64,000 nt of DNA from Elusimicrobiota bacterium. GTDB lineage: Bacteria; Elusimicrobiota; Elusimicrobia; Elusimicrobiales; UBA9959. The notes beneath the pieces were generated by a model. The model saw nothing but the letters and a program-made list of their open reading frames with translations, did no database searches and had not been told where the DNA came from. The stretch covers positions 6,610 to 70,609 of the forward strand of contig JACQPH010000045.1 of the NCBI GenBank assembly GCA_016207645.1. The letters are read 5' to 3'. Of the stretch, positions 38,581-64,000 are shown piece after piece. The stretch's first letter is position 1. Each line of letters starts with the position of its first letter. A program made the position numbers and the translations under genes.

Positions 38581-38612
38581 GGTTCCTCCGGATAGATCCC
38601 GCGCGGGCCTCT

Positions 38613-39452: not shown

Positions 39453-39459
39453 AAAGAAA

Positions 39460-39487: not shown

Positions 39488-39489
39488 GA

Positions 39490-39975
39490 CTACTTTTTTA
39501 TTTTCCGGGCTTTCCCGACCGCGGACAGCACCTTCTCGTAGCCTGTGCAGCGGCAGAGGTTGCCGGTCAGCCCCAGCTTGATCTCTTCGAGCGTGGCCTT
39601 CGGCCTGCGGCGCAGCAGCGCTTCCGAAGCCACTATCAGGCCGGGAGTACAGAAGCCGCACTGCACGGCCCCTTCGGCCATGAAGGTCTTCTGCAGCGGG
39701 TGCAGCCCGCCATCGCGGCCCTTTATCCCTTCTATGGTCACGAGTTCTTTGCCGTGGACCTGCACGGCCATCATCAGGCAGGAATTCACGGCCCTGCCGT
39801 CGAGCAGGACCAGGCAGGCGCCGCATTCGCCCTCGCCGCAGCCTTCCTTGGTGCCTTTCAGTCCGAGGTCCTCGCGGATAAATTCCAGCAAAGAGCGGGA
39901 AGAAGGGAGCTCCCGCTCCATGCTCACGCCGTTCACCCTGCATTTCAGGACGAACGGGCTTGTTGACTGTTTCAT
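39490..39975 (-). CDS. XDH-family [2Fe-2S] small subunit (set 2)
   Basis: CGEGECGACLV and QCGFCTPG..CRCTGY. Confidence 0.9.
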   Translation of the reverse strand: MKQSTSPFVLKCRVNGVSMERELPSSRSLLEFIREDLGLKGTKEGCGEGECGACLVLLDGRAVNSCLMMAVQVHGKELVTIEGIKGRDGGLHPLQKTFMAEGAVQCGFCTPGLIVASEALLRRRPKATLEEIKLGLTGNLCRCTGYEKVLSAVGKARKIKK

Positions 39976-42263: not shown

Positions 42264-42282
42264 AAAGCCTGATCTTACTATT

Positions 42283-43803: not shown

Positions 43804-43841
43804 TTGTCGCCTCTAAACGGTTTCAGGAAAGACGGTTAGAT

Positions 43842-44447
43842 TCAGTTTTGCGGGCGGACGAGGGCTTCGTAGTCCTCGGGCGTGTCGATGTCGCGGACCA
43901 CTTCGGGGTCCTTGACCTCCAGGTCGGCTATACTCGCCAGCGGGTTATGGGTGACCCAGTGCAGCCCCTTTTCGAGCGGGCCTTCGAAGCAAAGGCTTCT
44001 GTACTTCGCAGGTATTATTATGGGGTGCCCGCGCTTCAGCCTGGAGTCGGCCGCCCTGAAGGTCCGGGGGATAACTATGGAGTCCTTGTTATAGGACCAG
44101 AACTCGACAAGTTTCTTATAGGTTTCCGGGAGCACGGCGGGCTGGTCGACCAGGCAGACCATGAAAGCCTCGGTAAATTCAGAAACGACCCCCAGCCCCT
44201 CCCGCAGCGAGGAGAGCTGCCCGTGCTCTGGCTTTAGGTTCAGTGCCACTTTCTCCTCCGCCGGCGTCCAGGCGGACAGGATCTCTTTCGAGGACCGGCC
44301 CAGCACCACGACCCTGTCTTCCACGCCCGCCGACCGGAGCGCGGCGCAGACATGCTCGATGAAAGGCTTGCCGCGCCACTGGAGAACGGCTTTAGGCCGC
44401 CCCATCCTGGCAGAATCCCCGGCCGCAAGTATAATGGCAGACAGCAT
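43842..44447 (-). CDS. mocA: MobA-like NTP transferase (molybdenum cofactor cytidylyl/guanylyl-transferase, MocA-like)
   Basis: MLSAIILAAGDSARMGRPKAVLQWRGKPF N-terminal motif. ~200 aa. Heads the XDH operon. Confidence 0.8.
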   Translation of the reverse strand: MLSAIILAAGDSARMGRPKAVLQWRGKPFIEHVCAALRSAGVEDRVVVLGRSSKEILSAWTPAEEKVALNLKPEHGQLSSLREGLGVVSEFTEAFMVCLVDQPAVLPETYKKLVEFWSYNKDSIVIPRTFRAADSRLKRGHPIIIPAKYRSLCFEGPLEKGLHWVTHNPLASIADLEVKDPEVVRDIDTPEDYEALVRPQN

Positions 44448-47432: not shown

Positions 47433-48809
47433 TCAGCAGCCGGCTTTCCGGTAAAGCCTGGCGGCGGCTTTATTGGCGCGCTCCGCCAGCTTGAACTCGT
47501 CGACATTGACCAGGCGGCCGTTCTTTACCGCCACTTTGCCGTTGACTATGGTGTATTTCGTCCGGTGGGAACAGCCGCAGAAAAGCAGCGAGGCCAGCGG
47601 GTCCGACTTTGAACCCGCGAAGTCCAGCCCGCTTACGTCGAAGACGGCTATATCGGCGGCCTTCCCGGGCTCTATGGAACCTATGTCGTCGCGCCCCAGC
47701 ACCGAGGCCCCGCCGCGGGTGGCCAGCCTGAAAGCGTCCCGCGCCGGCATGGCTTCCACGCCGGCCTTCACTCGCTGCACCAGCATGGCCTGGCGTATCT
47801 CGCCCAGCATATCGGAGGAGTCGTTGGAGGCCGAACCGTCCACGGCCAGGCCCACGGGGACCTTGTGGTTCAGGAACATCCGGATGGGCGCTATGCCCGA
47901 GCCTAGCCGCAGATTGGAGCAGGGGCAGTGGGCGGCACCGGTCCGGGTCCCGCCCATTTTTTTCGCCTCGGCCTCGTTTATGAAAACGCAGTGCGCGAAC
48001 CAGGCGTTACCCTCGGAAACCCAGCCGACGGACTCCATGTATTCCAACGGGCGCATTTTAAAGAGCTTTTTGCAGAAAGCCTCTTCATCTATGGTTTCCG
48101 CCAGGTGGGTGTGCATACGCACCCCCCATTTTTTGGCCATCACGGCGGTGAGCTTCAGCAGTTCCGTGGTGACCGAGAAAGGCGAGCAGGGCGCCAGCGC
48201 CAGGCGGGTCATGGCGAACTTCCGCGGATCGTGGAACTTGCGCACCAGCCGCTCGCAGTCCTTCATGATGAAGTCCTCGGTCTGCACCACGCTGTCCGGC
48301 GGCAGACCGCCTTTGGAGCGGCCCCTGGACATGGAGCCGCGCGTGGCGTGGAAGCGCATGCCCAGCTCGCGGGCCGCCTCTATCTGCGTGTCTATGAAGA
48401 AGCCGCTGTCCTTTTCGGGGAACAGGTAAAGGTGGTCGGAACTGGTGGTACAGCCGGTCAGCAGCAGCTCCCCCAGGCCGACCTGGGTGCTGGCGTAGAC
48501 GGCCTCGGGGTCGATATGCTTCCAGATGTCGTAAAGATAGATAAGCCAGTCGAAAAGCTTGGCGTCCTGCACCTTGGGCAAATTGCGGGTAAGCGTCTGG
48601 TAAAGGTGGTGATGGGTGTTGACGAAACCGGGCAGGACGACGCAGCCTTTCGCGTCTATGACCGCGTCCGCTTTGACCCTGAGAGCATTCCCGACCTTCT
48701 TTATTTCCGCGCCCTCGATGTAGACTTCGCCGCCCTTTATCTCGCTGCCCTTCCCGTCCATGGTGGCCAGCACCAGCGCGTTCTTTATCAGGATGGATCT
48801 TGTCGGCAT
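47433..48809 (-). CDS. Amidohydrolase of the 8-oxoguanine/guanine (isoxanthopterin) deaminase group
   Basis: ORF 47433..49091 trimmed to MPTRSILIKNALV. VNTHHHLYQTLTR metal motif, HTHLAE, AVDGSASND. Confidence 0.85.
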   Translation of the reverse strand: MPTRSILIKNALVLATMDGKGSEIKGGEVYIEGAEIKKVGNALRVKADAVIDAKGCVVLPGFVNTHHHLYQTLTRNLPKVQDAKLFDWLIYLYDIWKHIDPEAVYASTQVGLGELLLTGCTTSSDHLYLFPEKDSGFFIDTQIEAARELGMRFHATRGSMSRGRSKGGLPPDSVVQTEDFIMKDCERLVRKFHDPRKFAMTRLALAPCSPFSVTTELLKLTAVMAKKWGVRMHTHLAETIDEEAFCKKLFKMRPLEYMESVGWVSEGNAWFAHCVFINEAEAKKMGGTRTGAAHCPCSNLRLGSGIAPIRMFLNHKVPVGLAVDGSASNDSSDMLGEIRQAMLVQRVKAGVEAMPARDAFRLATRGGASVLGRDDIGSIEPGKAADIAVFDVSGLDFAGSKSDPLASLLFCGCSHRTKYTIVNGKVAVKNGRLVNVDEFKLAERANKAAARLYRKAGC

Positions 48810-48837
48810 ACGGGGTTCTTTGCTCCGAACGGGTTTA

Positions 48838-48873
48838 TTATCCGCTGAAAATATTATAGTAAAATAAGGATAA
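48838..48873. promoter_or_regulatory. AT-rich divergent control region with TTATCC..GGATAA inverted repeat bracketing -10-like hexamers
   Basis: TTATCC 48838..48843 and GGATAA 48868..48873. TATTAT/TATAGT at 48852..48860. Lies between divergent catabolic genes. Confidence 0.35.
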
Positions 48874-48902
48874 GGGCAAAGACGGCCGCAACCGGAGAAG
48901 CC

Positions 48903-51467
48903 ATGAAAAAGACCATAAAATTCCTTTCCGACGCGCAGCTCAAGAGCGAGGCGGACCGCTGCCTCTACTGCGAGGAGAAGCCCTGCAAGACGGCCTGCCC
49001 GGCGGATTGCTCCCCGGGGGATTTCATCATGGCCGTGCGGCAGATGGAGAATTCGGATTTCAAGCGCTCGGCCGCCCTGATCATGGGCCACAATACCTTC
49101 GGCGGCGTCTGCGGTGCGGTCTGCCCCGACTGGTTCTGCGTAAAGGCCTGCTCCCGGAAGATCTTCGACAACCCCATAAACATACCGGCGGTGCAGGCCG
49201 CCGTAGTGCAGAAAGCCAAGGAGTTGGGGATGATGCCCGAATTCAGGCCGGCTAAGCCCAACGGGAAGAAAGTCGCCGTAGTGGGCGCCGGGCCTGCCGG
49301 TTTAGGCGCGGCCGGCACGCTGGCGCAGCTGGGCTACAAAGTGGACATTTTTGAAAAGGCTAAGAAGACCGGCGGCGCCTGTAATCTTATACCGGAAAAG
49401 CGCCTGCCGGCGGAAGTACTCCGCACCGAGATAGAATTCGTAAGAACGCTGGGCGACATCTCTATCAAGACCGGCTCGGCGGTAAAGGACCCGGCCTCGC
49501 TGCTGAAAAAATACGGGGCGGTCATAGTGACCGCCGGCGTGGCGGACCAGATAAGGCTGAATATCCCCAACGAGGGCCTGGGAGTGGAAGGACTGGAATT
49601 CCTGGCGAACCGGAAAAAATATCCGCTCAAGGGGAAGAACGTGGCCGTGATAGGCGGCGGGGCCGTGGCGGCCGACTGCGCGATGACGGCGCTGGAAGCC
49701 GGGGCGCATAAAGCGGAGATCTTCACCCGGAAGAACATAGGCCATATCCAGCTTTCGCAGAAGGAACTGCACGACCTCATCGGGGCCGGGGTGAACATAA
49801 ACGCCAAATCCCGCATAACCGGCATTCTGGCCGCCGGAAAGAGGATAAACGGCATCACCGTGGCCCGCCTGGACGAGAAGGCTAACGATATCAAGGGGTC
49901 CTGCCAGGTCCGCTCCGACATAGACTTCGTGGTGCTGGCCATAAAGAACCTGCCGGTCTTCACCGACAGGAAGAAGAAGGGCGTTTTTCTCGCCGGGGAC
50001 TGCCGCAACGGCGCCTCCACCGTGGTGGAAGCCGTGGCCTCGGCCAAGAACGCCGCCCTCGAGGCCGACGCCTACCTGCGCGGCGGCAAGCCCGTCCCGC
50101 GCGCCGGGTTGTTCCCCGGGGCCATGAGCGCCTATGAAAAGAACATCATGAACGGCGAACTGGCCTATACGCGGAAGGTCTGCGGCAGGACCGATTCCTG
50201 GTCCACCGACAAGAAAAGCGCCGTCATCCTGAAAGGCAGGAACATGCTGCCGGTGGACCTGAGCACCGACTTCTTCGGCCGCAAGCTGCTTTCCCCGTTC
50301 CTTATCTCCGCCTCCCCCCACTCGGACGGCTACGACCAGGTGAAGCGCGCCTACGAGGCCGGCTGGCCCGGCGTGGTGATGAAGACCGCCTTCGACGGGC
50401 TGCACATACACATCCCCTCGGAGTACATGGTCACCTTCAGCGAGAGCACCTACGGCAATTCCGACAACGTGTCGGGCCACCCGCTGGACCGGGTCTGCGC
50501 CGAAGTGGCCAGGCTGGTGAAGGAATACCCGGACCGCCTCACCGCGGCCTCCACCGGCGGCCCGGTGACCGGGAACGACGAGGCCGACAGGAAAGCCTGG
50601 CAGTCGAATACCCTTAAGCTGGAAAAAGCCGGGGCTATGGCTATAGAATATTCCCTCTCCTGCCCGCAGGGCGGCGACGGCACCAAGGGCGATATCGTTT
50701 CGCAGGACCCCGAGCTGTCCGCCAGGATCATAGGCTGGGTGATGGAAGTTTCCGACCCCGAAGTGCCGAAGCTTTTCAAGCTGACCGGCGCCGTCACCGC
50801 CATCTGGCAGGTGGTGAACGCTATAAAGCGGGTTTACGCCGGATACCCGCATAAGAAGGCCGGCATAACGCTGGCCAATTCCTTCCCGGCTCTGGCTTTC
50901 CGCAAGCGCCTGTCCGGGAAAGGGAAATGGGAGGAAGGCATGGTGGTGGGCATGAGCGGCGAGGGCGTGGCCCCCATCAGCAATCTCACCATCTCCAAGG
51001 CCGTGAACCTGGGCGTGCCCATCTCCGGCAACGGCGGGCCCATGGACTACAAGGCCGCCGCGCATTTCCTGGCGCTCGGCGCGAAGTCGGTGCAGTTCTG
51101 CACCGTGGTCATGAAGCACGGCTTCGGCATCATAGACGAGCTCAACTGGGGGCTCAGCCACATGCTCGAGGAGAAAGGCTACAAGTCAGTCGAGGAATTC
51201 ATCGGCTGCGCCCTGCCCGGGCCCGTGACGAACTTCCCCGACCTCACCCCGGTAAAGAACATCCCGTCGGTGGACGCGGAGCTCTGCCGCCACTGCGGCA
51301 ACTGCGCGCGCTGCGGCTACCTGGCGGTGAAGCTGGACGGGGACAAGGTGCCTAAGTTCGACGCCTCGAAGTGCATAGGCTGCTCGCTCTGCGTCAAGAA
51401 ATGCTTCTCCGGCGCGCTGAAGATGCGCAAGCGCACCGCGGAGGAGCTCAGGGTTTGTCCGGAATAA
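48903..51467 (+). CDS. Dihydropyrimidine-dehydrogenase-like fusion: GltD/PreT-type FeS-FAD-NAD(P)H module + PreA/DHODH-type FMN barrel + 2x[4Fe-4S]
   Basis: N-terminus CLYCEEKPCKTACP, VAVVGAGPAGLGAA and AVIGGGAVAADCA Rossmann motifs. Central TIM-barrel part with IEYSLSCPQGGDG. C-terminal CRHCGNCARC / CIGCSLCVKKC. Confidence 0.85.
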   Translation: MKKTIKFLSDAQLKSEADRCLYCEEKPCKTACPADCSPGDFIMAVRQMENSDFKRSAALIMGHNTFGGVCGAVCPDWFCVKACSRKIFDNPINIPAVQAAVVQKAKELGMMPEFRPAKPNGKKVAVVGAGPAGLGAAGTLAQLGYKVDIFEKAKKTGGACNLIPEKRLPAEVLRTEIEFVRTLGDISIKTGSAVKDPASLLKKYGAVIVTAGVADQIRLNIPNEGLGVEGLEFLANRKKYPLKGKNVAVIGGGAVAADCAMTALEAGAHKAEIFTRKNIGHIQLSQKELHDLIGAGVNINAKSRITGILAAGKRINGITVARLDEKANDIKGSCQVRSDIDFVVLAIKNLPVFTDRKKKGVFLAGDCRNGASTVVEAVASAKNAALEADAYLRGGKPVPRAGLFPGAMSAYEKNIMNGELAYTRKVCGRTDSWSTDKKSAVILKGRNMLPVDLSTDFFGRKLLSPFLISASPHSDGYDQVKRAYEAGWPGVVMKTAFDGLHIHIPSEYMVTFSESTYGNSDNVSGHPLDRVCAEVARLVKEYPDRLTAASTGGPVTGNDEADRKAWQSNTLKLEKAGAMAIEYSLSCPQGGDGTKGDIVSQDPELSARIIGWVMEVSDPEVPKLFKLTGAVTAIWQVVNAIKRVYAGYPHKKAGITLANSFPALAFRKRLSGKGKWEEGMVVGMSGEGVAPISNLTISKAVNLGVPISGNGGPMDYKAAAHFLALGAKSVQFCTVVMKHGFGIIDELNWGLSHMLEEKGYKSVEEFIGCALPGPVTNFPDLTPVKNIPSVDAELCRHCGNCARCGYLAVKLDGDKVPKFDASKCIGCSLCVKKCFSGALKMRKRTAEELRVCPE

Positions 51468-51470
51468 ACC

Positions 51471-52796
51471 ATGAAAAAGACCATACTGATAAAGAACGGG
51501 ACCATAGTTACTCTCGGGGAAAAAAACAAGGTGCTGTCCGGCCACGCCCTGCTTATAGAGGACGGCCTCATAAAGAAAATAGCCCCCCGGAGCAGCTTCA
51601 AAGGGAAGTATTCGAAAGTTATCGACGCTTCGGGCAAGCTGATCATGCCGGGCTTCATAAACGCCCATATGCACTTCTACAGCACCTTCGCCCGCGGGCT
51701 CGGGAAGGCGGCCCCGTCGAGGAATTTCGTGGAGATACTCAACAACCTCTGGTGGCGGCTGGACAAGAACCTCACCAACGCGGACTCCTACTACAGCGCC
51801 CTGATACCGCTCATCGACGCGGTGCGCAAAGGCACCACCACCCTGCTGGACCACCACGCCAGCCCCTTCGCCATCACCGGCTCGCTGGCGGCGGTGGAAA
51901 AGGCGGTCAGGGAGGCCGGCCTGCGCGCCTGCCTCTGCTACGAGGTTTCGGACCGCGACGGGAAGGAGAAGGCCAGGGAGGGGCTCGACGAGAATTCCGC
52001 CTTCATAACGGCCTCGGCCGTCCGGAACGACAACACAGTGAAGGCCATGTTCGGCCTGCACGCCTCGTTCACCATTTCGGACGAGACGCTGGAGGAAGCC
52101 GCCTACCGCGGCCATAAGCAGGGCGCCGGCTTCCATATCCATACCGCCGAGTCCCAGGCGGACCAGCTGCACTGCGAATCCCACCACAAACTGCGCGTCG
52201 TGGAAAGGCTGCGCGACTTCGGCATACTGGGCAGAAAGTCCATAGCCGCCCACTGCGTGCACGTCAACGAGGCGGAGATAGATATACTCAAAGAAACAGG
52301 CACCGCCGTGGTGCACAACCCGCAGTCGAACGCCAACAACTCCGTCGGCATCGCCGACCTGGTAAAGATGTCGGCCGCCGGCGTGCTGGTGGGTCTCGGC
52401 ACCGACGCCATGACCGTGAACATGCTGGAGGAAGCGCGTTCCGCCCTCTGGCTTCAGCATCTGAAGCGGGACCCGTCGCAGGGCTTCATGGAAGCGGGCA
52501 ACGCCCTGCTGGTCAACAACGCGAAGATCGCGAACCGCTGCTTCAAGGGGCTGGGCGAGCTGAAGGAAGGCTTCGCCGCCGACCTGGCGATAATGGATTA
52601 TCTGCCCCCCACGCCGCTGGACGCCTCCAACTTCTACGGCCATTTGATATTCGGCATAAGCCAGAGCGCGGTGGACACCACCATAGCCGCCGGGCGGGTG
52701 CTCATGGAAGGCAAGAAGCTGAAACTGGACCTGGACGAGGAGGAAGTCACCCGCAAATCCGCGGAACTGGCGAAGAAGCTCTGGAAGAATTTTTGA
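51471..52796 (+). CDS. ssnA: SsnA-family putative aminohydrolase
   Basis: MPGFINAHMHFYSTFARGL resembles E. coli SsnA HNHFYSGLSRG. 441 aa. Starts 3 nt after the DPD-like gene. Confidence 0.8.
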   Translation: MKKTILIKNGTIVTLGEKNKVLSGHALLIEDGLIKKIAPRSSFKGKYSKVIDASGKLIMPGFINAHMHFYSTFARGLGKAAPSRNFVEILNNLWWRLDKNLTNADSYYSALIPLIDAVRKGTTTLLDHHASPFAITGSLAAVEKAVREAGLRACLCYEVSDRDGKEKAREGLDENSAFITASAVRNDNTVKAMFGLHASFTISDETLEEAAYRGHKQGAGFHIHTAESQADQLHCESHHKLRVVERLRDFGILGRKSIAAHCVHVNEAEIDILKETGTAVVHNPQSNANNSVGIADLVKMSAAGVLVGLGTDAMTVNMLEEARSALWLQHLKRDPSQGFMEAGNALLVNNAKIANRCFKGLGELKEGFAADLAIMDYLPPTPLDASNFYGHLIFGISQSAVDTTIAAGRVLMEGKKLKLDLDEEEVTRKSAELAKKLWKNF

Positions 52797-53552: not shown

Positions 53553-53669
53553 GAGCTAATTCAATCAAATACGGAGCGGAGCCGTATGAGCCGAAAGTAC
53601 CTGCCGGGCGGCGTCTTTCGGCCCGCCGGCACTGGGCCCTTTATCCGGGCCGCGCTCAGAACAGGCTGC

Positions 53670-54668
53670 TCAGAAAGTCTGGGTGACTTTGTTCAGGCCT
53701 TTGGGGTTGTCGGGGTTCAGGCCTTTGGAAAGGGAAAGGCGCAGGGCCAGCAGCTTCATGCGGATATCCACGGGGATGCAGCTGAAAGGGAATTTGAGCT
53801 TTCCCGGCCGCACTATTTCACAGGGCGTGCCGCGCTCATCCAGCGCTTTTTTGACCTTCAGTATATCCTCCGGCAGCCTGTCGGCAGGGGTGAACAGGAA
53901 GACCAGGTCCCTGGCGGTATAGGCGCCTACGGGGCCGTGCAGGAACTCGGCGGCCGAATAGCCCAGGGCGTGGGACTTGGCCATCTCCCTGAACTTGAGG
54001 GCGGAGTCCTCGGCCACGGCGTTATAAGGCCCGCGCCCGACGAAGCCCAGCATACGGGCTTTCTTTATCCCGGCCAGGAGTTCCACCCCGCCGCGATCGT
54101 CCCGCACGGCTTCGCGGGCCGCGGCCACTGTGTCCCTGAAATCCTTCGCGGAAAAGCAGCGGCTCCAGGCCTGCGCCGTCCACAGCACGGCCCAGAGCTG
54201 CAGCTCGAAGCTCTTGGTGGCCGCCACCGGGACCTCCCTGGAATCCGAAAGCAGGATATGCCGCCCGGCCAGGCGCGCCAGCGGGTTGTTCGCCAGGTCG
54301 GCCTCGTTGGTGACGGCTACGCCTTTCGCCCCCCATTTCATCAGCTTCTCCAGGCAGGCCGTGATGTCCTGGCTGCGGCCGGACTGCGAAAAGGCCCAGA
54401 CGGCCTGGCCCTTGAAATTCAGCGGCTTCCTGGCCTCGAAGATGGAGTGCGGGTGGATGAAATTGGTGATGGTGCCGGCGTAGGCCTCCCAGATATACTT
54501 GGCGAACAGCGTGGCGGTGCCGGAAGAGCCGCGCCCGACCAGGTAGACGGCTTTGTCCCCGGACCGGAGGGCAAGTTTCTTAAGAGAGCCCGAGCGCGCG
54601 GAGAATTTTTCCAGCAGGGCGGGGATCTCGGCTATGTCGCCGTAGGTGAGCGTTTCTCCGATGTTCAT
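53670..54668 (-). CDS. Double-SIS-domain sugar-phosphate isomerase/deaminase (GlmS C-terminal/AgaS/FrlB-like)
   Basis: VYLVGRGSSGTA and AFSQSGRSQD SIS motifs. No glutaminase domain. Confidence 0.75.
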   Translation of the reverse strand: MNIGETLTYGDIAEIPALLEKFSARSGSLKKLALRSGDKAVYLVGRGSSGTATLFAKYIWEAYAGTITNFIHPHSIFEARKPLNFKGQAVWAFSQSGRSQDITACLEKLMKWGAKGVAVTNEADLANNPLARLAGRHILLSDSREVPVAATKSFELQLWAVLWTAQAWSRCFSAKDFRDTVAAAREAVRDDRGGVELLAGIKKARMLGFVGRGPYNAVAEDSALKFREMAKSHALGYSAAEFLHGPVGAYTARDLVFLFTPADRLPEDILKVKKALDERGTPCEIVRPGKLKFPFSCIPVDIRMKLLALRLSLSKGLNPDNPKGLNKVTQTF

Positions 54669-55516
54669 TTTCCCCGGCCCTTGACTTTTTTTCTGGCTTC
54701 CCGCAGGCGCTTCATCCCGAGCTCTATGTCGCGCAGGTCCAGGCCGGTGCGGCCGTAATGCGCGTGCTCTATGGGCGAGTCGGGGCAGATATAGGTGCCG
54801 CGGCGCACGCCCTTCGGATCTTTTTCCAGGCCCAGCCAGATAAGCCAGGGCTTCAGGCGCGAAAAGTCCTTGGCCAGCAGTTCCGGGTTGGAGCGCATGA
54901 TAAGCCGCCGGTCGCCGAAACCTTCCAGCACGGCGGCGCTGTGGTAACCGGCTTCCTTCGCAGCCTCGACGTCGCGGTGGGTGTCGCCGATCACAAAGAC
55001 CTCGCGCGGGCTTATTTTAACACCGGCCAGCCTCCCGGCCCGCTCCACGGCCTTTTCCAGCACTTCGCTCCGGTGGCGGGAATCGCAGCCGTAGCCGCCG
55101 AAGGCGAAATGCTTCAGCAGGCCGGACGGTTCGAGTTTTATGAAGGCCCCGTCCTTCAGGTTGCCGGTGCCGAGGCCTACCAGCACGTCCCTGCGGCCGG
55201 AAAGCTTAGCCAGGAATTTTTCCGCTCCGTTCAGCCTGGAATAATTCCCGGACCTTATGGACCTCTTTACTTCAGCGGGAAGTAAATTTAGATATTGAAG
55301 TTCCATCTCCCGGAACTGCCTGGCGGACGGCTTTTTGCCGCTGGCGTACTTGAAGACCAGGCTGAAGTTTTCCTTATCGGTACAGCCCTGCCATGAGACC
55401 TTATCGCAGGCATGTTCGACGCCGAACATGTCCTTTATTACTTTATCGAGCGCCCGGCCTCCCGCTCCCCCCGCTTTGATCAGGGTGCCGTCGATATCGA
55501 AAAGGACGATCTTCAT
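54665..55516 (-). CDS. HAD-superfamily phosphatase with ~70-aa basic C-terminal extension
   Basis: Motif I FDIDGTL, motif III/IV region VIGDTHRDVEAAKEAG. ATGA overlap with the SIS gene. Confidence 0.8.
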   Translation of the reverse strand: MKIVLFDIDGTLIKAGGAGGRALDKVIKDMFGVEHACDKVSWQGCTDKENFSLVFKYASGKKPSARQFREMELQYLNLLPAEVKRSIRSGNYSRLNGAEKFLAKLSGRRDVLVGLGTGNLKDGAFIKLEPSGLLKHFAFGGYGCDSRHRSEVLEKAVERAGRLAGVKISPREVFVIGDTHRDVEAAKEAGYHSAAVLEGFGDRRLIMRSNPELLAKDFSRLKPWLIWLGLEKDPKGVRRGTYICPDSPIEHAHYGRTGLDLRDIELGMKRLREARKKVKGRGK

Positions 55517-55523
55517 CGTATAG

Positions 55524-56774
55524 TTATCGCCCGCCGTGAACGATCTTCCCCTTCTTCACCGTCATCGAGCACTGGCTGGCGCCGAAATAATAGCAGAGCT
55601 CCCGGTAATCGTCCGCTTTATAGAAGGCCAGGTCGGCCTGCAGGCCGGGGACCACGCTGCCCACCCTGTCGCCTATGCCCAGCGCCCAGGCCCCGTTCAC
55701 CGTGGCGGCGCAAAAGGCCTCCTCCGGCGTCATGCCGCAATGGGTGCAGGCCGCGGACAGGACGAACTGCATGTTCCAGCAGGGGCAGGTGCCGGGATTG
55801 AGATCCGTAGCCAGGGCCACGGGCACGCCCGCGGCGATAAGCTCGCGCGCCGGCGGGTATTTCGTCAGGCCGAGGTAATAATTGGAAGCCGGCAGCAGCG
55901 TCGCTATGGTCCCCGCCTCGCGCATGGCCGTTATGTCCTGCGCATAGACATGGTCGGCGTGGTCCGCGCTGAGGACCCCCGCCGCTATCCCGGCGCGGGT
56001 GCCGCCGTAGTTGGAAAGCTGCTCGGAATGTACCTTGGGCTTCAGGCCCAGGCTGGCGGCTTCCTTCAGGTAGGCCGTGGTCTGCTCCGGGGTGAAATAG
56101 CCCTTCTCGCAGAAGATATCCGCGAAGACGGCCAGCTTTTCGGCGGCGGCCTTAGGCAGGATCTCCGCCGTGACATAGGCCAGGTACTTCGCCGCGTCGC
56201 CGCTGAACTCCGGCGGCACGCTGTGCGCCGCCAGCAGGGTGGGCAGCATTTCAAGAGGGGTGAGCTTCTGCGCCTCGCGCACGGCCCGCAGCATTTTCAG
56301 CTCGGATTCCAGGCTCAGGCCGTAGCCGCTCTTCACCTCTGCCGTGGTGGTGCCGCAGGCGAGGAAACCCGCGGCCCGCGCGGCGAGCTGCTCCGCCATG
56401 GCCCTCCGGGACTGCCGGCGCACCGCCCCTATGCTGGAAAGTATCCCCCCGCCGGCGGCCTTTATCTCCTGGTAGGAGGCCCCGGCGGCGCGCATCGAAA
56501 AATCCTTGAGGCGCGGCTCGGCGAAAACGGCGTGGGTATGGCTGTCCACGAAACCTGGCAGGCAGATCCCGTTGACCTCCACCTTCCTGGCTTTTTTAGC
56601 CAGGCGGTGGCGGGACACTACGGACCGCGGACCGGCCGCCTCTATGAGCCCGTTCTCCACCAGCACCTCGGCGTTCTTCACCAGCCCTATCTCGCGCATG
56701 GCTTCCCCCGCGCGGGGAACGGCGTCTCCGGCGAAGGTGAGGAGCTGTTTGATACCGGTGAAGAGGGTGGCCAT
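55524..56774 (-). CDS. hutI: Imidazolonepropionase
   Basis: PGFVDSHTHAVF, YQEIKAAGGGILSS, amidohydrolase His/Asp set. Confidence 0.9.
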   Translation of the reverse strand: MATLFTGIKQLLTFAGDAVPRAGEAMREIGLVKNAEVLVENGLIEAAGPRSVVSRHRLAKKARKVEVNGICLPGFVDSHTHAVFAEPRLKDFSMRAAGASYQEIKAAGGGILSSIGAVRRQSRRAMAEQLAARAAGFLACGTTTAEVKSGYGLSLESELKMLRAVREAQKLTPLEMLPTLLAAHSVPPEFSGDAAKYLAYVTAEILPKAAAEKLAVFADIFCEKGYFTPEQTTAYLKEAASLGLKPKVHSEQLSNYGGTRAGIAAGVLSADHADHVYAQDITAMREAGTIATLLPASNYYLGLTKYPPARELIAAGVPVALATDLNPGTCPCWNMQFVLSAACTHCGMTPEEAFCAATVNGAWALGIGDRVGSVVPGLQADLAFYKADDYRELCYYFGASQCSMTVKKGKIVHGGR

Positions 56775-57271
56775 TATCTGAAATTCTCGAACTGGAGGGT
56801 TATCCCGTAATCCCCGCCGCGCAGCAGGGCCATCACGTTCTGGAGCTCGTCCTTGGACTTGGAGGTGACGCGCAGCGCGTCGCCCTGGATCGAGACATTG
56901 GCCTTGAGCTTTTGGTCTTTTATCGCCCTGACTATCTCCTTGGCTTTCTCCTGGGGGATGCCCTGCTGCACCTTCACGGCCTGCTTGGCCGTCCCGCCCA
57001 GGGCGCTCTCCACCTTCTGCGCCTCGAAATTCTTGACCGGCAGGCCGCGCTTGGAGATCTTCGTCAGCAGCACGTCGTAAAGGGCCTTCACCTTGTAGGC
57101 GTCGCTGGACTGCAGCATTATGACATTGGCCTTCTTGTCGAAGTTTATCTCCGAATTGGAGCCCTTGAAGTCGTAGCGGTTGATCACTTCCTTCATGGCG
57201 ATGGCTATAGCCTCGTCCACCACCGTATACTCCACCTTTGAAACCACGTCGAAACTGAATTCAGAAGCCAT
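56774..57271 (-). CDS. yajQ: YajQ/UPF0234-family nucleotide-binding protein
   Basis: SFDVVSKVEYTVVDEAIAIAMKEVINRYDFKGS. 165 aa. 1-nt overlap with the hutI start. Confidence 0.85.
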   Translation of the reverse strand: MASEFSFDVVSKVEYTVVDEAIAIAMKEVINRYDFKGSNSEINFDKKANVIMLQSSDAYKVKALYDVLLTKISKRGLPVKNFEAQKVESALGGTAKQAVKVQQGIPQEKAKEIVRAIKDQKLKANVSIQGDALRVTSKSKDELQNVMALLRGGDYGITLQFENFR

Positions 57272-57290
57272 GAGTCGTTTCCTCCGTAAT

Positions 57291-58964
57291 TTATTTAAGC
57301 ATCGGTATCTTCACGCCTTTCTTTCTGGCGAAATCCGAAGCCAGCTTGTAGCCGGCGTCGGCGTGGCGCAGCACGCCCATGGCCGGGTCGTTGGTGAGCA
57401 CCCGCTCCAGCCGCAGCGCCATCTCTTTCGTGCCGTCGGCCACGGTCACCTGCCCGGCGTGCAGGGAATAGCCCATGCCCACCCCGCCGCCGTGGTGGAA
57501 AGAGACCCAGCTGGCCCCGGAAGCGGTATTGATAAGGGCGTTAAGGATAGGCCAGTCGGCTATGGCGTCGGAGCCGTCCTTCATGGATTCGGTCTCGCGG
57601 AAAGGGCTGGCCACGGAGCCGGAATCCAGGTGGTCGCGCCCTATCACGATAGGCGCCGAGATCTTCCCCTTCTTCACCAGGTCGTTGATGCGCAGGCCCA
57701 TCAGGTGGCGCTCGCCGTAGCCCAGCCAGCAGATGCGCGAAGGCAGGCCCTGGAACTTCACCTTCCTGGAAGCGAGGTCCATCCAGCGGCGCAGATGCTC
57801 GTCACCGGGGAACAGCTCGAGCGCGAGTTTATCCGTGACGGCGATGTCCTGCGGGTCGCCGGAGAGGGCGGCCCAGCGGAAAGGGCCTTTCCCCTCGCAG
57901 AAAAGGTCGCGGATATAGGCCGGCACGAAGCCGGGGAAGTCGTAAGCGCGCTTCACGCCCTGCTTGAAAGCCATGGTGCGGATATTGTTGCCGTAGTCGA
58001 AAACGACGGCGCCGGCCTTCCGGAGCTTCAGCATGGCCTCGACGTGTAGCGCGATGGATCCCATGGCGAGCTTCAGGTACTTATCCGGGTCCGCCCGGCG
58101 CAGGGCGTCGGCTTCCTTCACGCCGTAGCCCTTCGGGATATAGCCTTTCAGCGGGTCGTGCGCCGAGGTCTGGTCGGTCAGCACGTCTATCTTCACGCCG
58201 CGGCGGGCCAGCTCCGGCAGCACCTCGGCGCAGTTGCCCAGCAGGCCGATGGAAAGCGGCTTCTTCGCTTTCAGGGCCGCGGCGGCCAGGCGCAGGGCCT
58301 CGTCCAGGTCGCGGCTCATTATGTCCACATAAGCGGTGTCCAGGCGCTTCTGTATGCGCGTCTCGTCGGCCTCGATTATCAGCGCCACTCCGCCGTTCAT
58401 GGTCACGGCCAGGGGCTGGGCGCCGCCCATGCCGCCGAGCCCGCCGGTGACGGTAAGTTTCCCGGCCAGGTCGCCGCCGAAATGCTTGCGCGCGCAGGCG
58501 GCAAAGGTCTCGTAGGTGCCCTGCAGGATGCCCTGCGTGCCGATATAGATCCAGGAGCCGGCCGTCATCTGGCCGTACATCATCAGGCCTTTCTTTTCCA
58601 GCTCGTCGAAGGTCTCCCAGTTCGCCCAGTTCCCCACAAGATTGGAATTGGCTATGATAACGCGCGGTGAATATTCATGCGTGCGCAGTATCCCTACGGG
58701 CTTCCCCGACTGCACCAGCAGGGTCTCGTCGTTCTCCAGGCCCCGCAGGGAGGAAACTATGGCGTGATAGCAGTCCCAGTTGCGGGCGGCCTTGCCGCGC
58801 CCGCCGTAGACGATAAGGTCTTCGGGGCGCTCGGCCACTTCCGGGTCCAGATTGTTCATCAGCATGCGCAGGGCCGCCTCCTGCTGCCAGCCTTTGCAGG
58901 AGAGCTTATTGCCCCGCGCCGCGCGGATGACCCGCTCTTCGATCTTCGGTGAAGCCATGATCAT
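57291..58964 (-). CDS. hutU: Urocanate hydratase
   Basis: [39 protein letters not shown]-binding motif. 557 aa. Confidence 0.92.
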
Positions 58965-58971
58965 ATCCTCG

Positions 58972-60504
58972 TTACCAGGAGCTCTTCAGCGCGCCTATCT
59001 CTTTTTCCACGGCCTCCAGGACCGAGCACTTCCTTACGGCCTCGGTCATGGCGTTATGGTCTATGAAAAGAGGCCGGTCCTCGTCCAGGTGCCTGACCAC
59101 TTTGCGGATGGCGGCATGGGCGGCGCGCGTGCCGTCACCGGCGCGGAAATGCCTGAAATCCACGCCCTGCGCGGCGGCTATCATCTCTATGGCCAGCACG
59201 CCGCAGGCGTTGTCGAGGATCTGCCTCGTCTTGAGCGCCGCGTTCATGCCCATGCTGACGAAATCCTCCTGGTCCGCGGCCGCGGGGATGGACTGGATGC
59301 AGGAGGGCGCGCTCAGTATGCGCTGCTCCACCACCAGCATGTCCGCCGTGTACTGGCTGAGCATCAGGCCGGAGAACATCCCGGCGCCCTTGGTCAGGAA
59401 AGCCGGCAGTCCTACGCTCAGGGCCGGGTTCAGCAGGCGGTTCAGGCGCCTTTCGGAGAGCACGGACACCATGGTGACGCCGGCCCCCACCATATCCAGG
59501 GGCATGCTGACCGGGGTGCCCTGGAAATTGGCGCCGGTGAGCACGGTGTCGCTCTCCGGCAGGAAAATGGGATTATCGGCCACGCCGTTGATCTCTATCT
59601 CGAACTGTTCGCGGGCGAAGGCGAGGTGGTCCCGGAAAGCGCCGATGACCTGCGGGGTGGAGCGCATGGAATAGGCGTCCTGCACTTTCACTTTGAGCTT
59701 CCCGGTGACCAGGTCGGAACCGGCCACCACGGAGCGGATATTCGCGGCGGAGGTGATGGCGCCTTTGAAACCCCGCAGCTCGTGCAGGCGGGTGTCGTAC
59801 GGCTTCATGTTGGCCATGAGCGCCTCCAGGGACATGGCCGCCGTGATCTCGGCCTGTTTGACCCAGCGCTCCGCGTCGTAGAGCTCCAGGCAGCCCATGC
59901 CGGTCAGCAGGTTGGAGCCGTTTATGGCGGCGAGGCCGTCGCGCGCCTGCAGCCCCGGGACGGGGATGCCCGCCTTCTTCATGGCCGCCCTGGTGGGCAT
60001 CCGCCTGCCCCGGTAGAAGCATTCACCCTCGCCCATGAGAGAAAGGGCCAGCTGGCTCATGGGAGCCAGGTCGCCGCAGGCGCCCACGCTGCCCTTCTCG
60101 CAGACTACCGGCGTAAGCCCCTTGTTGAGCATAGCCACGTAGGCCAGGGTTATTTCAGGCCGGCAGCCGGAATGCCCCCTGCTGTGGACGCTTATCCGCA
60201 GCAGCATGGCCGCGCGCACGTGTTCGACGGGGGCCGGCTTGCCTATGCCGGCGGCATGGTTGTAGATCAGGTAGCGCTGGAACTGCTTGACCTGCTCGTC
60301 GGTGAGCACCAGCTCGGAGAATTCGCCTATGCCGGTATTCACGCCGTACATTATCTCGCGGGCCGTGATCTTCTTCTCCAGCATGGCGCGGCATTTCCTG
60401 ATGCGCGCCGCGGCCGCGGGGCTCAAAGCCACTTTCGCGCCGTGCCGCGCGACGCTGACCACGTCTTCGATAGCAAGGGCGTCTCCGCCCACTTTGATGA
60501 TCAT
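58972..60504 (-). CDS. hutH: Histidine ammonia-lyase (MIO enzyme) with Ala-Cys-Gly in place of the Ala-Ser-Gly triad
   Basis: ORF 58972..61146 trimmed to [15 protein letters not shown] (ATG 60504). [26 protein letters not shown]. Confidence 0.9.
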
Positions 60505-60524
60505 AATCGTATCCTCGGGACCGC

Positions 60525-61238
60525 CTATAGGTAGCCGTAATACACGTACCTGGTCCAGGCGCCCAGCAGGAGCGTGATCGCCACGCTCAGCCAGATGTTG
60601 ACGCGGGACATGTCGATGATGCGCTTCCGCTTTATGTAGAAGATCTGGAAGATCCAGGCCAGGGCGAAAGGGATCCACCAGTAGCCGGCCGCGAAGAAAA
60701 AGGCCCAGAGCACCACCCGCTCGAAGATGAGGAAGTATTTCTCGTCGAAGTGCGGAAAGGCCATTCCGAACATGTCCTTCTCGAAGAAGTAGACCAGCAC
60801 GGTGGTGAAATGGGTGACCATCACCAGCATCACGGCGATGGCCGACCATTTCTCCCCCAGCAGCAGGCCGGGCCCCTCGATGTTCACCGGGGAGATCATG
60901 AACAGCACGTAGAAATGCAGTATCTGGTCCGTCAGGAAGCTGACCGTGTTGTCCTTGAAGCGCAGGGACTTCATGCTGTAGATCCGCAGTTCGTCTATCA
61001 GGAAATGCGCGGCCAGCATCAGCCCCAGCGCCCCCCAGCCGTTCACCGGCAGCGGCCCCAGCCTGACCCAGGTCTCCGGGAGGTAGTTCCAGGTCAGGGC
61101 CGCTGACACGACGAAGTGGGTCAGGCAGTGCAGCAGCATGCCCCACACGTTCTTGCGCTTCATGCGGTTGACGACGTCGAGCTGCAGCGTGAAGTCCGCC
61201 AGCAGGTGCGAGAGTAAAAGGCGCCAGAAGATGATCAT
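60525..61238 (-). CDS. DUF3307-family integral membrane protein
   Basis: N-terminal LLLSHLLADFTLQ motif and His-containing TM helices. Abuts the cyclase stop. Confidence 0.6.
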   Translation of the reverse strand: MIIFWRLLLSHLLADFTLQLDVVNRMKRKNVWGMLLHCLTHFVVSAALTWNYLPETWVRLGPLPVNGWGALGLMLAAHFLIDELRIYSMKSLRFKDNTVSFLTDQILHFYVLFMISPVNIEGPGLLLGEKWSAIAVMLVMVTHFTTVLVYFFEKDMFGMAFPHFDEKYFLIFERVVLWAFFFAAGYWWIPFALAWIFQIFYIKRKRIIDMSRVNIWLSVAITLLLGAWTRYVYYGYL

Positions 61239-63413
61239 TTAGCCCTTTGAGGTCAGGTTGAAGGACTGGTCCCAGTCCTTTGGCGGCTCCTTTATGTACA
61301 GCTCCGCCTGCTCTATGTAGAACTGCGAGGGCCCGTCGTTAGGGCGGGCCGCCAGCGCGGCCCGGAAATCCTTCAGCGAACCGGCGTAGTCGGCCTTGTA
61401 GAACTTCTCTATGCCGGCCTCGTAGTGTCCGAGCATGGCCTTGACCTCCGGCGCCGCGTTGCCCTTGCGGGCGAAGGGTTCGTACACCTTCACCGGGATG
61501 GCCTTGCCGACCACGCGGATGCTGCCGAGGTAGCGGTGGTCGAAGAAGTCTTTCAGTCCCCCGAAGGTCTCCTCGCTGGTCATGATCTTGGAGTGGAAGA
61601 ACTTGTTTGCGCCCTCCAGGCGGGAGGACAGGTTCACCGCGTCGCCCATCACGGTGTAGGACAGCCTGGTCTTGGAGCCCATGTTGCCCACGACCATCGG
61701 GCCCGAGTTCACGCCCACGCGCGCCGCGGGTTTTATAGTGTACTGTGTGAGCGCCTCGTTCAGGCGGGCCATCTCCACCTGGCAGTCGACGGCCGCCAGC
61801 AGCGCCAGCTTCTTATGGTCCGCCTGGTCCAGCGGGGCGTTCCAGAAAGCCACGATGCAGTCGCCGATGTATTTGTCCACCGTGCCGTCGTGCTTGAGGA
61901 TGATCTCGGTGAAGGCGGACAGGTATTCGTTGAGCATGGAGGTCAGTTCCTCGGGCGTCATCTTCTCCGACATGGTGGTGAAGCCCGCCAGGTCCAGGAA
62001 GAAAGCGGTCATGTCCCGCTTCTCGCCGCCGAGGGAGAGCTTGGACGGGTCCTTGGTGATGAGCTCGACCACCTTGGGGGACAGGTACTGCCCGAAAGTG
62101 TTCTTGATCCACTTCTTCTCGCGGCCCTCGGCCAGGCCCTTATCGACCGTTATATAGGCGAAAGGAAGGAAAAGGGACAACAGCACCGAGCCGAAAGGCA
62201 TGAGGACGTTATGGGCAAGCAGCACGACGTCGATCACGCACATGGCCCCTATGACCGTGAAACAGACCGAGATCAGCAGGGCCAGGGAATGCCTGCGCAG
62301 GTAAACCGGCAGCCAGGGCAGCAGCAGGACCAGGAGCACGGTATAGGTCACGGTCAGCGGCTCGCGGAAATCGCCCGCCAGCAGGTTGTCGGTGAACGTA
62401 GCGTGGACCTCGACGCCCGGCAGCTGCTTCGATAACGGGCTGGGCATGTGGTCGAACGCGCCGATAGCCGTGGAGCCGACCAGGGTCACCCCGCCCTTCA
62501 GGGCTTCTTTTTCCTCTTTGCTGAGCTGGCCGCTCAGGATATCCGCGAAGGAGATATGCCTGTAGCTCGAAGACTTGATGCTCTTCTTGTCCTTATCCCA
62601 GCCGGGATGAAGTTTGCGGCTGATGTAGTCCCGGTAATTCAGCGTTCTCTCGCCGCCGTATTCCACGAAAAGCTGGGAAAGCGACTTTCCGGAATAGATC
62701 GCGTAGGAAGCCAGCCCGATGGAGGGGATCGCGATGTCGGCGCATTCCTTCCAGCACTTTACGTCCTTCAGGCCGGCTTTCGAATAAGTCATCCAGTCGT
62801 CGGCGTTGCCGTCGAAATCGGTGTCCTTGCCGTAAAAAGGCATATAGCGCCTCACCTGCCCGTCGTTGTCCAGCGTAAGGTCGACATGCGGCTGGGCGAT
62901 AATGGCGCTGGCCCCGGCGAGGCCGTCGATAGGGGGCTTTATCTTCAGGGTATCCAGGTCGATATGGACCAGGTTGACCACGTTCCCGACCCGGGCCACG
63001 GCCTGCACGTACTGCCTGTTGTCCTCGGGAATATCGCGCTCGGACTTGGAGAGTATCACGTCGAATACTATGCCTTTAACCCCGTACTTGTTAAGTTTCT
63101 CCACCAGTTCGCCGTAATAGCGCCTCTTGAGAGGCCAGCCGTAGCGGTCCAGAGTGAGCTCGTCGATGGCGGTTATCGTTATCTTCGGATTGGACGGTTT
63201 ATTGAGATACTTGCCGAAAAGGAAGGTATTGGAAAGAGAATCGGAACTCCAATCCAGCCAGGACAGCATTTGCGGCAAGTTCACTATAAAGTGGTTCCAG
63301 GTGTAGTCTATCGGTTTCGTGGCCGGAATAACCACGGAGAAGAAAAGCCAGAGGAAGGAAAAAACAGCGGTGCCTATGTAGAACTTCGTATTACCGGGGA
63401 CAGTTGTTTTCAT
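61239..63413 (-). CDS. CHASE2-sensor membrane class III adenylate/guanylate cyclase (class IIIb-like Lys/Thr pair)
   Basis: Periplasmic CHASE2 (ITAIDELTLDRYGWPLKRRYYGELVEKL, VFDVILSKSE), TM block, cyclase core FFLDLAGFT, DKYIGDCIVAFW, SYTVMGDAVNLSSRLEG, helical C-terminal tail. Confidence 0.85.
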   Translation of the reverse strand: MKTTVPGNTKFYIGTAVFSFLWLFFSVVIPATKPIDYTWNHFIVNLPQMLSWLDWSSDSLSNTFLFGKYLNKPSNPKITITAIDELTLDRYGWPLKRRYYGELVEKLNKYGVKGIVFDVILSKSERDIPEDNRQYVQAVARVGNVVNLVHIDLDTLKIKPPIDGLAGASAIIAQPHVDLTLDNDGQVRRYMPFYGKDTDFDGNADDWMTYSKAGLKDVKCWKECADIAIPSIGLASYAIYSGKSLSQLFVEYGGERTLNYRDYISRKLHPGWDKDKKSIKSSSYRHISFADILSGQLSKEEKEALKGGVTLVGSTAIGAFDHMPSPLSKQLPGVEVHATFTDNLLAGDFREPLTVTYTVLLVLLLPWLPVYLRRHSLALLISVCFTVIGAMCVIDVVLLAHNVLMPFGSVLLSLFLPFAYITVDKGLAEGREKKWIKNTFGQYLSPKVVELITKDPSKLSLGGEKRDMTAFFLDLAGFTTMSEKMTPEELTSMLNEYLSAFTEIILKHDGTVDKYIGDCIVAFWNAPLDQADHKKLALLAAVDCQVEMARLNEALTQYTIKPAARVGVNSGPMVVGNMGSKTRLSYTVMGDAVNLSSRLEGANKFFHSKIMTSEETFGGLKDFFDHRYLGSIRVVGKAIPVKVYEPFARKGNAAPEVKAMLGHYEAGIEKFYKADYAGSLKDFRAALAARPNDGPSQFYIEQAELYIKEPPKDWDQSFNLTSKG

Positions 63414-63437: not shown

Positions 63438-64000
63438 CTATTTTACCGTGAACCGGAACATCCCTCCGGGCGGACCTTCCGCCCAGATCCTGCCGCCGTG
63501 CAGCTCCACTATTTTCCTGGAGATGGCCAGGCCCAGGCCGAAGCCGGCTTCGCCCTCCGCCGGTTTGAGCCGCTTGTATTTCTCGAAGACCGCCTCCAGC
63601 TGGTCCGGAGGCAGGCCGGGGCCCGTATCGGAGACGGTAAAGACCAGGCCGCCGTTCACGGCGGCGGCCGAAGCCGTGACCTTCCCGCCCCTCGGGGTGA
63701 ATTTCCAGGCGTTGGAAAGGAGGTTCTCCACGACCCGGCGCAGCAGCGAGGAATCGGCCGAGAACTCCGCGGTACCGGCGCCGGCCGTCTCCACCGAGAG
63801 CGAGATCCCCTTCTCCTCGAAAATGGCCCTGAAGCTCTCGGCCGCGGAAGAGAGGAACTCGGCCGCTTTGAGCGGCTTGAGGTCCGGCTTCAGCTGGCCG
63901 GCTTCCATGCGCGAGATATCCAGGATATTCTCCAGCAGCTTGAACAGCCTGTCGCTGGAATCCCTGACGTTCCTGACGTAGCCGGACTGCCTGGCCTCCG
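63438..64000 (-). CDS. Sensor histidine kinase, C-terminal part (N-terminus beyond window edge)
   Basis: The frame stays open to nt 64000 (..LLENILDISRMEAGQL). HATPase_c motifs NLLSNAWKF, DTGPGL, GFGLGLAI. Confidence 0.8.
   Translation of the reverse strand, partial: EARQSGYVRNVRDSSDRLFKLLENILDISRMEAGQLKPDLKPLKAAEFLSSAAESFRAIFEEKGISLSVETAGAGTAEFSADSSLLRRVVENLLSNAWKFTPRGGKVTASAAAVNGGLVFTVSDTGPGLPPDQLEAVFEKYKRLKPAEGEAGFGLGLAISRKIVELHGGRIWAEGPPGGMFRFTVK

Follow-up and report, generated by a model that had tools for sequence, protein, structure and literature searches.

Histidine utilisation (hut) genes are known from compact operons such as hutUHIG, with the regulator HutC, in Pseudomonas and Klebsiella, and hutPHUIGM in Bacillus. 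We analysed a 64,000-nt stretch of DNA from an Elusimicrobiota bacterium (GenBank assembly GCA_016207645.1, contig JACQPH010000045.1, positions 6,610 to 70,609; hereafter the window) in which hutH, hutU and hutI are likewise clustered on one strand, within a longer gene array. Unlike the classical operons, this array contains neither a HutC nor a HutP regulator (no GntR or HutP domain occurs in any array protein), and no fourth-step enzyme (hutG, hutF or formiminotransferase) is found in the array or the window. Its hut genes are interleaved with yajQ and have sensor genes ahead of them, and its histidine ammonia-lyase (HAL) carries Ala-Cys-Gly as its active-site triad. Our preferred reading, to which we give a probability of roughly 60%, is that the region is a lineage-specific, inherited mixed-function operon of free-living Elusimicrobiota that has been remodelled by recombination.

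Three further groups of described systems resemble parts of the locus. Almost all bacteria have YajQ, but what it does is still not well understood. The YajQ proteins known as cyclic di-GMP (c-di-GMP) effectors, namely Xanthomonas XC_3703, Lysobacter CdgL and Salmonella STM0435, share full-length family membership with the window protein, which has basic, basic and acidic residues at the positions of STM0435 R33, R137 and D138. The window yajQ differs from them in having no adjacent LysR-type gene (by array domain scans) or nearby c-di-GMP enzymes, and in lying between hutU and hutI, a position not reported for characterised members in the literature searched. Class IIIb adenylate cyclases with membrane sensors (Pseudomonas aeruginosa CyaB and CHASE2-linked enzymes) resemble the window cyclase, whose catalytic domain aligns to CyaB with all six key residues and whose N-terminus is a CHASE2 domain. 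The window gene differs in running in line with those of a catabolic operon and with a DUF3307 partner, and in an ectodomain exchanged between close species (41% against 96–97% identity by half). Finally, uber-operons, in the concept of Lathe, Snel and Bork, are conserved mixed-function gene arrays. The present array is similarly a conserved neighbourhood of functionally unrelated genes whose members are gained and lost, with the difference that its conservation has been examined within one phylum only.

Gene content and packing of the array

An eight-gene, same-strand run had been described in the initial annotation of this DNA, and its gene identities and junctions proved correct: all eight open reading frames were recovered on the minus strand at 53670–63413, each identity is backed by Pfam and NCBIfam matches, and the junction sequences agree. 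Eight genes are nevertheless not the complete extent, as a sensor histidine-kinase gene ends 24 nt (stop to ATG) upstream of the cyclase gene on the same strand, bringing the run to at least nine. The features are as follows.

63438..64000, minus strand: 3′ part of the sensor histidine-kinase gene, first gene of the conserved array, truncated by the window end
61239..63413, minus strand: 724-aa fusion of a CHASE2 sensor with an adenylate cyclase of class III (IIIb-type) (CHASE2 E 1.4e-33; Guanylate_cyc E 5.9e-20)
60525..61238, minus strand: DUF3307 integral membrane protein, 237 aa (PF11750 E 7e-13), whose start abuts the cyclase stop
58972..60504, minus strand: histidine ammonia-lyase (hutH), 'type A', with an Ala-Cys-Gly triad (Lyase_aromatic E 1.4e-164)
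57291..58964, minus strand: urocanate hydratase (hutU; TIGR01228, 954 bits against a cut-off of 375)
56774..57271, minus strand: YajQ/DUF520 family protein, 165 aa (NF003819, 187 bits against a cut-off of 146)
55524..56774, minus strand: imidazolonepropionase (hutI; TIGR01224, 411.8 bits against a cut-off of 298)
54665..55516, minus strand: HAD-superfamily phosphatase-like protein, 283 aa (Pfam HAD family matches)
53670..54668, minus strand: double-SIS protein (SIS E 1.4e-23), last gene of the conserved array
53553..53669, minus strand: intergenic spacer of 117 nt, 3′ boundary of the conserved array

From the cyclase to the SIS gene the junctions measure 0, 20, 7, 19, –1, 7 and –4 nt; the hutI start and yajQ stop share one nucleotide (TAATG), and the SIS start (ATGA) overlaps the HAD gene. 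Shine–Dalgarno-like motifs precede most array starts. We found no terminator-like sites or Rfam elements between array genes, and an Rfam scan of the whole window returned one tRNA only. The sequence features expected of an operon, namely a single strand, short or overlapping junctions and no internal terminators, are thus all present, and the same order and junctions occur in two independent Logan contigs (L083 and L001). Downstream of the SIS gene, beyond the 117-nt spacer, lies a YkuD gene; a candidate terminator in this spacer was rejected, its fold being no better than that of shuffled sequences (z = –1.0).

As a baseline for packing, genes were called by codon usage across the entire window, which yielded 35 same-strand junctions outside the region. 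The gaps at these junctions have a median of 15 nt and are 24 nt or shorter in 57% of cases, so that eight consecutive gaps of this size would arise with a chance of ~0.57^8, or ~1%, assuming independent gaps. The run is operon-like, yet not exceptional for this genome. Similarly packed are a nine-gene pur (purine-biosynthesis) operon run at 5319–16178 and a seven-gene xanthine-dehydrogenase-type run at 37265–44447, the latter including another sensor cyclase and MobA. Because tight spacing is the norm in this genome, packing alone is no sign of a dedicated circuit. The earlier argument from gap-free packing to co-transcription therefore stands in part: co-transcription is plausible given the single strand, the short or overlapping junctions, the Shine–Dalgarno-like motifs and the lack of a predicted terminator, whereas the packing itself is not special.

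Conservation and fluidity across Elusimicrobiota

Relatives were sampled by a YajQ protein scan of one genome per GTDB species, which returned 80 loci, nearly all titled as Elusimicrobiota metagenome-assembled genomes (MAGs), with YajQ identities of 54–95%. By tblastn and gene calling, hut genes lie beside or near yajQ in 51 of the 80. The check on synteny that had been suggested turned out in favour of the array: the complete order of kinase, CHASE2 cyclase, DUF3307, lyase, hutU, yajQ, hutI, HAD and SIS is found in 28 related loci. Adjacency of hutU and yajQ is still seen at 61% YajQ identity (L053); at 53% identity one gene separates the two (L082), and in L044 hutU lies 9.8 kb away from yajQ with intervening genes. 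Gene content 3′ of the SIS gene varies among species, with synteny breaking there in most relatives, and at the other end an upstream electron-transfer flavoprotein alpha (ETF-alpha) gene or ETF operon is split from the kinase gene by non-conserved spacers, many with GC-rich hairpins. Since the flanks vary on both sides, the conserved unit runs from kinase to SIS.

The canonical order of this unit would be sensor histidine kinase, CHASE2 adenylate cyclase, DUF3307, DEDDh exonuclease (deleted here), histidine ammonia-lyase, urocanase, YajQ (preceded in some species by a CsgG-like lipoprotein), imidazolonepropionase, HAD and double-SIS, and the window would hold a nine-gene local version of this co-directional array. 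The DEDDh (DnaQ-like) exonuclease gene, encoding ~197 aa, sits between DUF3307 and the lyase gene in 34 loci and is missing at window position 60505–60524, the sole such case and one confirmed by L083. Nucleotide alignments with relatives end at the DUF3307 stop codon and restart at the hutH ATG, and a homologue of the exonuclease was not found elsewhere in the window. Other genes come and go in the same manner: the space between hutU and yajQ holds the CsgG-like lipoprotein gene in 10 loci, and that between HAD and SIS holds a Dph6-like gene in two.

Junction lengths range from tight to open. In 31 of 33 loci no more than 25 nt separate DUF3307 from the cyclase gene, and the same holds for HAD and SIS in 31 of 34, while spacers of at least 80 nt are seen between kinase and cyclase (4/32 loci), between hutU and yajQ (5/32) and between yajQ and hutI (11/40, the gap being –1 nt in many others). 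The long yajQ–hutI spacers of relatives contain GC-rich palindromic elements of ~100–200 nt. One element type is common to L004, L007 and L010 (10499–10715) and occurs inverted in L016 (1898–2045); palindromic inserts at this junction were also observed in L003, L020, L028 and L035. The junction looks like a repeated insertion site, and the elements resemble miniature inverted-repeat transposable elements, repetitive extragenic palindromes or strong hairpins. A search of the window for the relatives' element found it absent.

Parts of the array also occur on their own. In L026, hutU-yajQ-hutI-HAD-SIS is found without the cyclase, behind an apparent small-peptide/radical-SAM island, and the rumen Elusimicrobium loci L042 and L044 have yajQ-hutI-HAD-SIS with a 244–502-nt upstream spacer, no adjacent hutU and no cyclase. 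The island in L026 (1383–8251), which by appearance is like those for ribosomally synthesised and post-translationally modified peptides, consists of three tandem genes for ~70-aa peptides plus apparent radical-SAM-type and accessory genes. It takes the place of the kinase-to-lyase segment, and part of it replaces the kinase gene in L008 (185–3097).

These spacers and sub-blocks bear on whether the run might instead be several independent transcription units, co-oriented by chance in a compact genome rather than forming one operon. Such an arrangement would agree with tight spacing as the genome norm, with spacers of at least 80 nt at three junctions in relatives and with sub-blocks that stand alone. 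It agrees less well with the window itself, where the longest gap is 24 nt, two genes start before the stop codon of the preceding gene has ended, and there is no conspicuous signal for a terminator or promoter; moreover, a conserved order between non-conserved flanks is typical of operons. We therefore regard separate units as improbable.

A different arrangement is found in ~29 loci, mostly of gut and rumen Elusimicrobiaceae, where yajQ has neither a hut neighbour nor a cyclase. In 27 of these, a gene for a TPR-like lipoprotein follows yajQ after 1–9 nt (55 nt in L070; examples are L052, L054, L055, L060 and L077), and in one subgroup of this gut clade the TPR-like gene is followed by an acyl-CoA dehydrogenase/ETF-beta/ETF-alpha operon. 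A rearrangement of an ancestral neighbourhood is suggested by the ETF-alpha family, which is common to this yajQ operon and to the site ahead of the kinase gene in the free-living clade. Because the gut clade keeps yajQ without hut, YajQ is expected to have a role independent of Hut and of the cyclase. The earlier suggestion that YajQ and the cyclase are hard-wired into the Hut pathway is accordingly difficult to maintain, given that tight spacing is ordinary in this window, that the gut clade has yajQ in another tight operon, that unrelated genes are gained and lost within the array, and that its junctions differ in length among loci.

Hut enzymes and an Ala-Cys-Gly histidase

Histidine ammonia-lyase, urocanase and imidazolonepropionase are all present, and HutH, HutU and HutI would together take histidine to formiminoglutamate. 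A gene for the fourth step may lie elsewhere in the genome. As candidates for HutF we considered the amidohydrolase genes at 51471–52796 and 47433–48809, which score as SsnA and 8-oxoguanine deaminase, well below HutF cut-offs, and were rejected. They belong to a stretch beside the array (47433–52796) with an 8-oxoguanine-deaminase-like gene, an oxidoreductase gene of fused GltD-like/PreA-like type (854 aa) and a gene for an SsnA-like aminohydrolase; GltD-like/PreA-like and SsnA-like genes recur 3′ of the SIS gene in many relatives. This gene content fits a neighbourhood of purine or N-heterocycle catabolism.

The window lyase scores as HAL in the subfamily model NF006871 (539 against a cut-off of 524) and reaches 525.5 against 539 in the hutH equivalog TIGR01225. 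Residues Y53, H83, N195, Q277, Y280, R283, F329 and E414 of Pseudomonas putida HAL are aligned and conserved. At the equivalent of S143 the window lyase has Cys, in the motif GSVGACGDL, giving Ala-Cys-Gly for the canonical Ala-Ser-Gly (triad codons at 60073–60081). The substitution is present in 119 of the best 120 database homologues (78–100% identical), among them sequences whose titles name Acidobacteriota, Myxococcales and Thermoanaerobaculaceae. In two MAGs, one of Acidobacteriota and one of Myxococcales (with a matching metagenome contig), the gene is solitary and lies away from hutU and hutI. No paper on Ala-Cys-Gly lyases was found in the literature searched.

The nearest comparison is an S143C mutant of the P. 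putida histidase, which is reportedly active. It likewise has a central Cys in the triad within an otherwise canonical HAL active site, whereas the Cys of the window type is natural and fixed in nearly all of these homologues, across several phyla. Since the mutant is active, a Cys-derived cofactor in the Ala-Cys-Gly lyase would be plausible by analogy.

Across relatives, the lyase slot holds either of two forms, ~37% identical to each other, both scoring as HAL. Type A is found in the window and eight loci, and type B in the remaining loci, with higher HAL scores (623 and 605 bits). A neighbour-joining tree of flanking genes shows type A at scattered positions among lineages with type B. Between the closely related L008 (type A) and L009 (type B), the DNA on either side is 92–94% identical and exactly the lyase gene is unalignable (L008 6688–8344). 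The type B gene usually overlaps the exonuclease gene by 4 or 22 nt, and type A genes have spacers of 23–76 nt. Together these patterns suggest repeated cassette exchange at the lyase slot (L003–L050).

The sensor cyclase, its neighbours and a possible cAMP loop

The best solved relative of the window cyclase is Pseudomonas aeruginosa CyaB (3r5g, E 5.6e-36), to which the motifs FFLDLAGFT, DKYIGD and YTVMGDAVNLSSRLE align. All residues that define a class III adenylate cyclase, namely the two metal-binding Asp, the substrate-specifying Lys and Thr, and the transition-state Asn and Arg, are present, and the six are invariant in 34 cyclase orthologues, over which the ectodomain has a median identity of 45%. 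With the Lys/Thr pair and the full catalytic set, the protein is therefore predicted to be an active cyclase with cyclic AMP (cAMP) as its product. The CHASE2 half (window 62150–63413) and the catalytic half compare differently with relatives: the ectodomain is 41% identical to that of L009 and 87% to that of L007, whereas the cyclase domain is 96–97% identical to those of L008 and L009. This mosaic points to domain-level recombination or rapid sensor diversification.

Upstream, the kinase reading frame continues unbroken to the edge of the window, covering the last part of HisKA and HATPase_c. Orthologues of full length measure 660–680 aa and combine Cache-like, HAMP, PAS, HisKA and HATPase_c domains or regions. 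An amino-acid-sensing dCache motif was considered and is not claimed: the periplasmic region resembles Cache weakly, at 21.8 bits where the cut-off is 45, and no Tyr/Arg/Trp/Asp amino-acid motif was seen in a 30-sequence alignment. Downstream, the DUF3307 protein is the cyclase's tightest partner by junction length. A word-limited search gave 168 homologues, Elusimicrobial throughout the best 120 of them, and one unrelated paper in the literature searched mentions the family. Its AlphaFold model is an all-helical membrane protein (pLDDT 87.8) for which no fold neighbour was found in the PDB (best E 1.2, TM 0.27 or less). A Pycsar anti-phage system was also considered for this pair and set aside: PycC models match the shared cyclase domain only (97 bits or less), there is no effector match, DUF3307 matches no PADLOC model, and vertical conservation of the locus and the purine-type Lys/Thr residues disfavour it further.

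A second class III cyclase gene (42283–43803, minus strand, HAMP plus Guanylate_cyc) lies in the run at 37265–44447, between MobA and xanthine-dehydrogenase-type molybdoenzyme genes with gaps of 19 and 38 nt.

In enteric bacteria including Klebsiella, CAP–cAMP activates hut. A comparable catabolite-type loop could exist here, in which the cyclase, and perhaps the kinase, sets the level of cAMP and a CRP-family regulator encoded elsewhere controls this and other N-heterocycle operons. Purifying selection acts on the cyclase, a predicted active enzyme, even as its ectodomain diversifies, and the second cyclase in a xanthine-dehydrogenase-type operon is mildly favourable as well. Yet no CRP or cNMP-binding gene occurs within the window, no CRP-like palindrome is conserved upstream of the kinase gene in relatives, where the spacers themselves are not conserved, and L026, L042 and L044 have hut genes without the cyclase. 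On balance we consider a loop of this type unlikely.

YajQ and its possible ligand

The window YajQ, which scores above the family cut-off, aligns full-length to STM0435 (8k4i) and XC_3703 (5b7w); its best 120 homologue matches are from Elusimicrobia only. XC_3703 binds c-di-GMP with a Kd of ~2 uM, whereas its binding of cAMP or cGMP is not detectable (PMC4199771). Salmonella STM0435 contacts c-di-GMP through R33, R137 and D138 (PMC10978029), whose counterparts in the window protein are K, K and D, so that charge is kept and the identity of R33 and R137 is not. If this YajQ binds a second messenger, the candidate would be c-di-GMP. No cNMP-binding, CRP, GAF, GGDEF, EAL or PilZ domain was found in the array or the whole window, and no receptor for the cyclase product is encoded within the unit. 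Response-regulator genes are likewise lacking from the array; the window has two stand-alone receiver proteins outside it.

The initial annotation had proposed a self-contained sensor, second messenger and effector circuit, in which the CHASE2 cyclase senses an external cue and YajQ binds its cyclic nucleotide and controls the Hut enzymes or hut expression, all within a single operon. Co-linearity of the cyclase gene and yajQ with hut in at least 28 related loci is in keeping with this, as is the membership of YajQ in a nucleotide-binding family. However, the cyclase has a Lys/Thr adenylate-cyclase signature, and XC_3703 shows no detectable binding of cAMP or cGMP; the residues kept in YajQ are those mapped for c-di-GMP, which, to our knowledge, class III cyclases do not produce; and there is no cAMP receptor nearby. 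In addition, yajQ is found without cyclase or hut in ~29 loci, L026, L042 and L044 have it together with hut while lacking the cyclase, and no link between YajQ and histidine utilisation was found in the literature searched. A circuit of this kind is thus not supported and very improbable.

A broader version would make YajQ a genuine nucleotide-dependent part of the control of histidine catabolism and, together with the kinase and the cyclase with its swapped ectodomains, a niche-tuned input layer for N-heterocycle catabolism. Its basis would be the persistence of yajQ beside hutU from 61% to 95% YajQ identity and the second cyclase, set in the purine-oxidation operon of the window. We view this as speculative and do not expect it to hold.

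HAD and double-SIS proteins and other window features

Among solved structures, the HAD protein comes closest to 2hcf (E 7.6e-26), which is uncharacterised. The double-SIS protein is related to the GlmS isomerase domain and to NagB-II (127 bits against a cut-off of 430 for the NagB-II model), with phosphosugar isomerases and GlcN6P deaminase as its relatives in the PDB. Both lie far under every curated equivalog cut-off.

It is conceivable that yajQ-hutI-HAD-SIS is a functional module in which YajQ, possibly loaded with c-di-GMP, acts with the HAD and SIS proteins and HutI at a point after urocanate, such as a branch or a regulatory step. This is the most persistent sub-block, retained in the rumen loci L042 and L044, the HAD–SIS junction is short in nearly all loci, and charge is kept at the c-di-GMP-contact positions of YajQ. 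Against these points, we know of no Hut chemistry that requires a phosphatase or a sugar-phosphate isomerase, the HAD and SIS proteins fall far short of the equivalog cut-offs, palindromic inserts repeatedly interrupt the yajQ–hutI junction, and the gut clade has yajQ apart from hutI, HAD and SIS. A dedicated module is, in our judgement, doubtful.

Elsewhere in the window, a low-GC island at ~32590–34850 (46–51% against ~62%) was probably acquired horizontally. It carries a HigB/HigA-like toxin–antitoxin pair (32594–33238) and a gene for a 446-aa HEAT-repeat protein (33365–34705).

A probable inherited operon remodelled by recombination

Under the reading of the region as an inherited mixed-function operon, the array would be transcribed as one long mRNA, or two, from a start upstream of the kinase gene, with a possible break between the lyase gene and hutU because some genomes keep only hutU-to-SIS or yajQ-to-SIS. 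The non-Hut genes would share transcription with the Hut genes and not a pathway. The cyclase would be an apparently active enzyme of cAMP synthesis, with a receptor encoded elsewhere, and YajQ would be the lineage's ordinary copy, a possible c-di-GMP binder not tied to Hut. The sequences themselves show the gene identities, the junctions, the conservation and the exchange of the lyase and the CHASE2 ectodomain as cassettes; we infer the co-transcription of the array, cAMP as the cyclase product and the passenger status of the non-Hut genes.

Two observations weigh against so neutral a view. Linkage of hutU and yajQ over 53–95% YajQ identity is stronger than a neutral passenger would give and could reflect function. 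A second sensor cyclase lies within a further catabolic operon for N-heterocycles, a hint that the design recurs and is not due to chance.

The locus illustrates how a long operon is remodelled by cassette exchange in an uncultured phylum, affecting histidases, CHASE2 ectodomains and passenger genes alike. Deep, phylum-level linkage of yajQ and hut provides one concrete, testable hypothesis for YajQ, although the evidence favours mostly shared transcription. Of the by-products of the analysis, the most notable are the Ala-Cys-Gly histidases and the existence of two lyase cassettes. The locus also reveals a large natural family of histidase-like proteins with Cys where the Ser of the triad is considered invariant.

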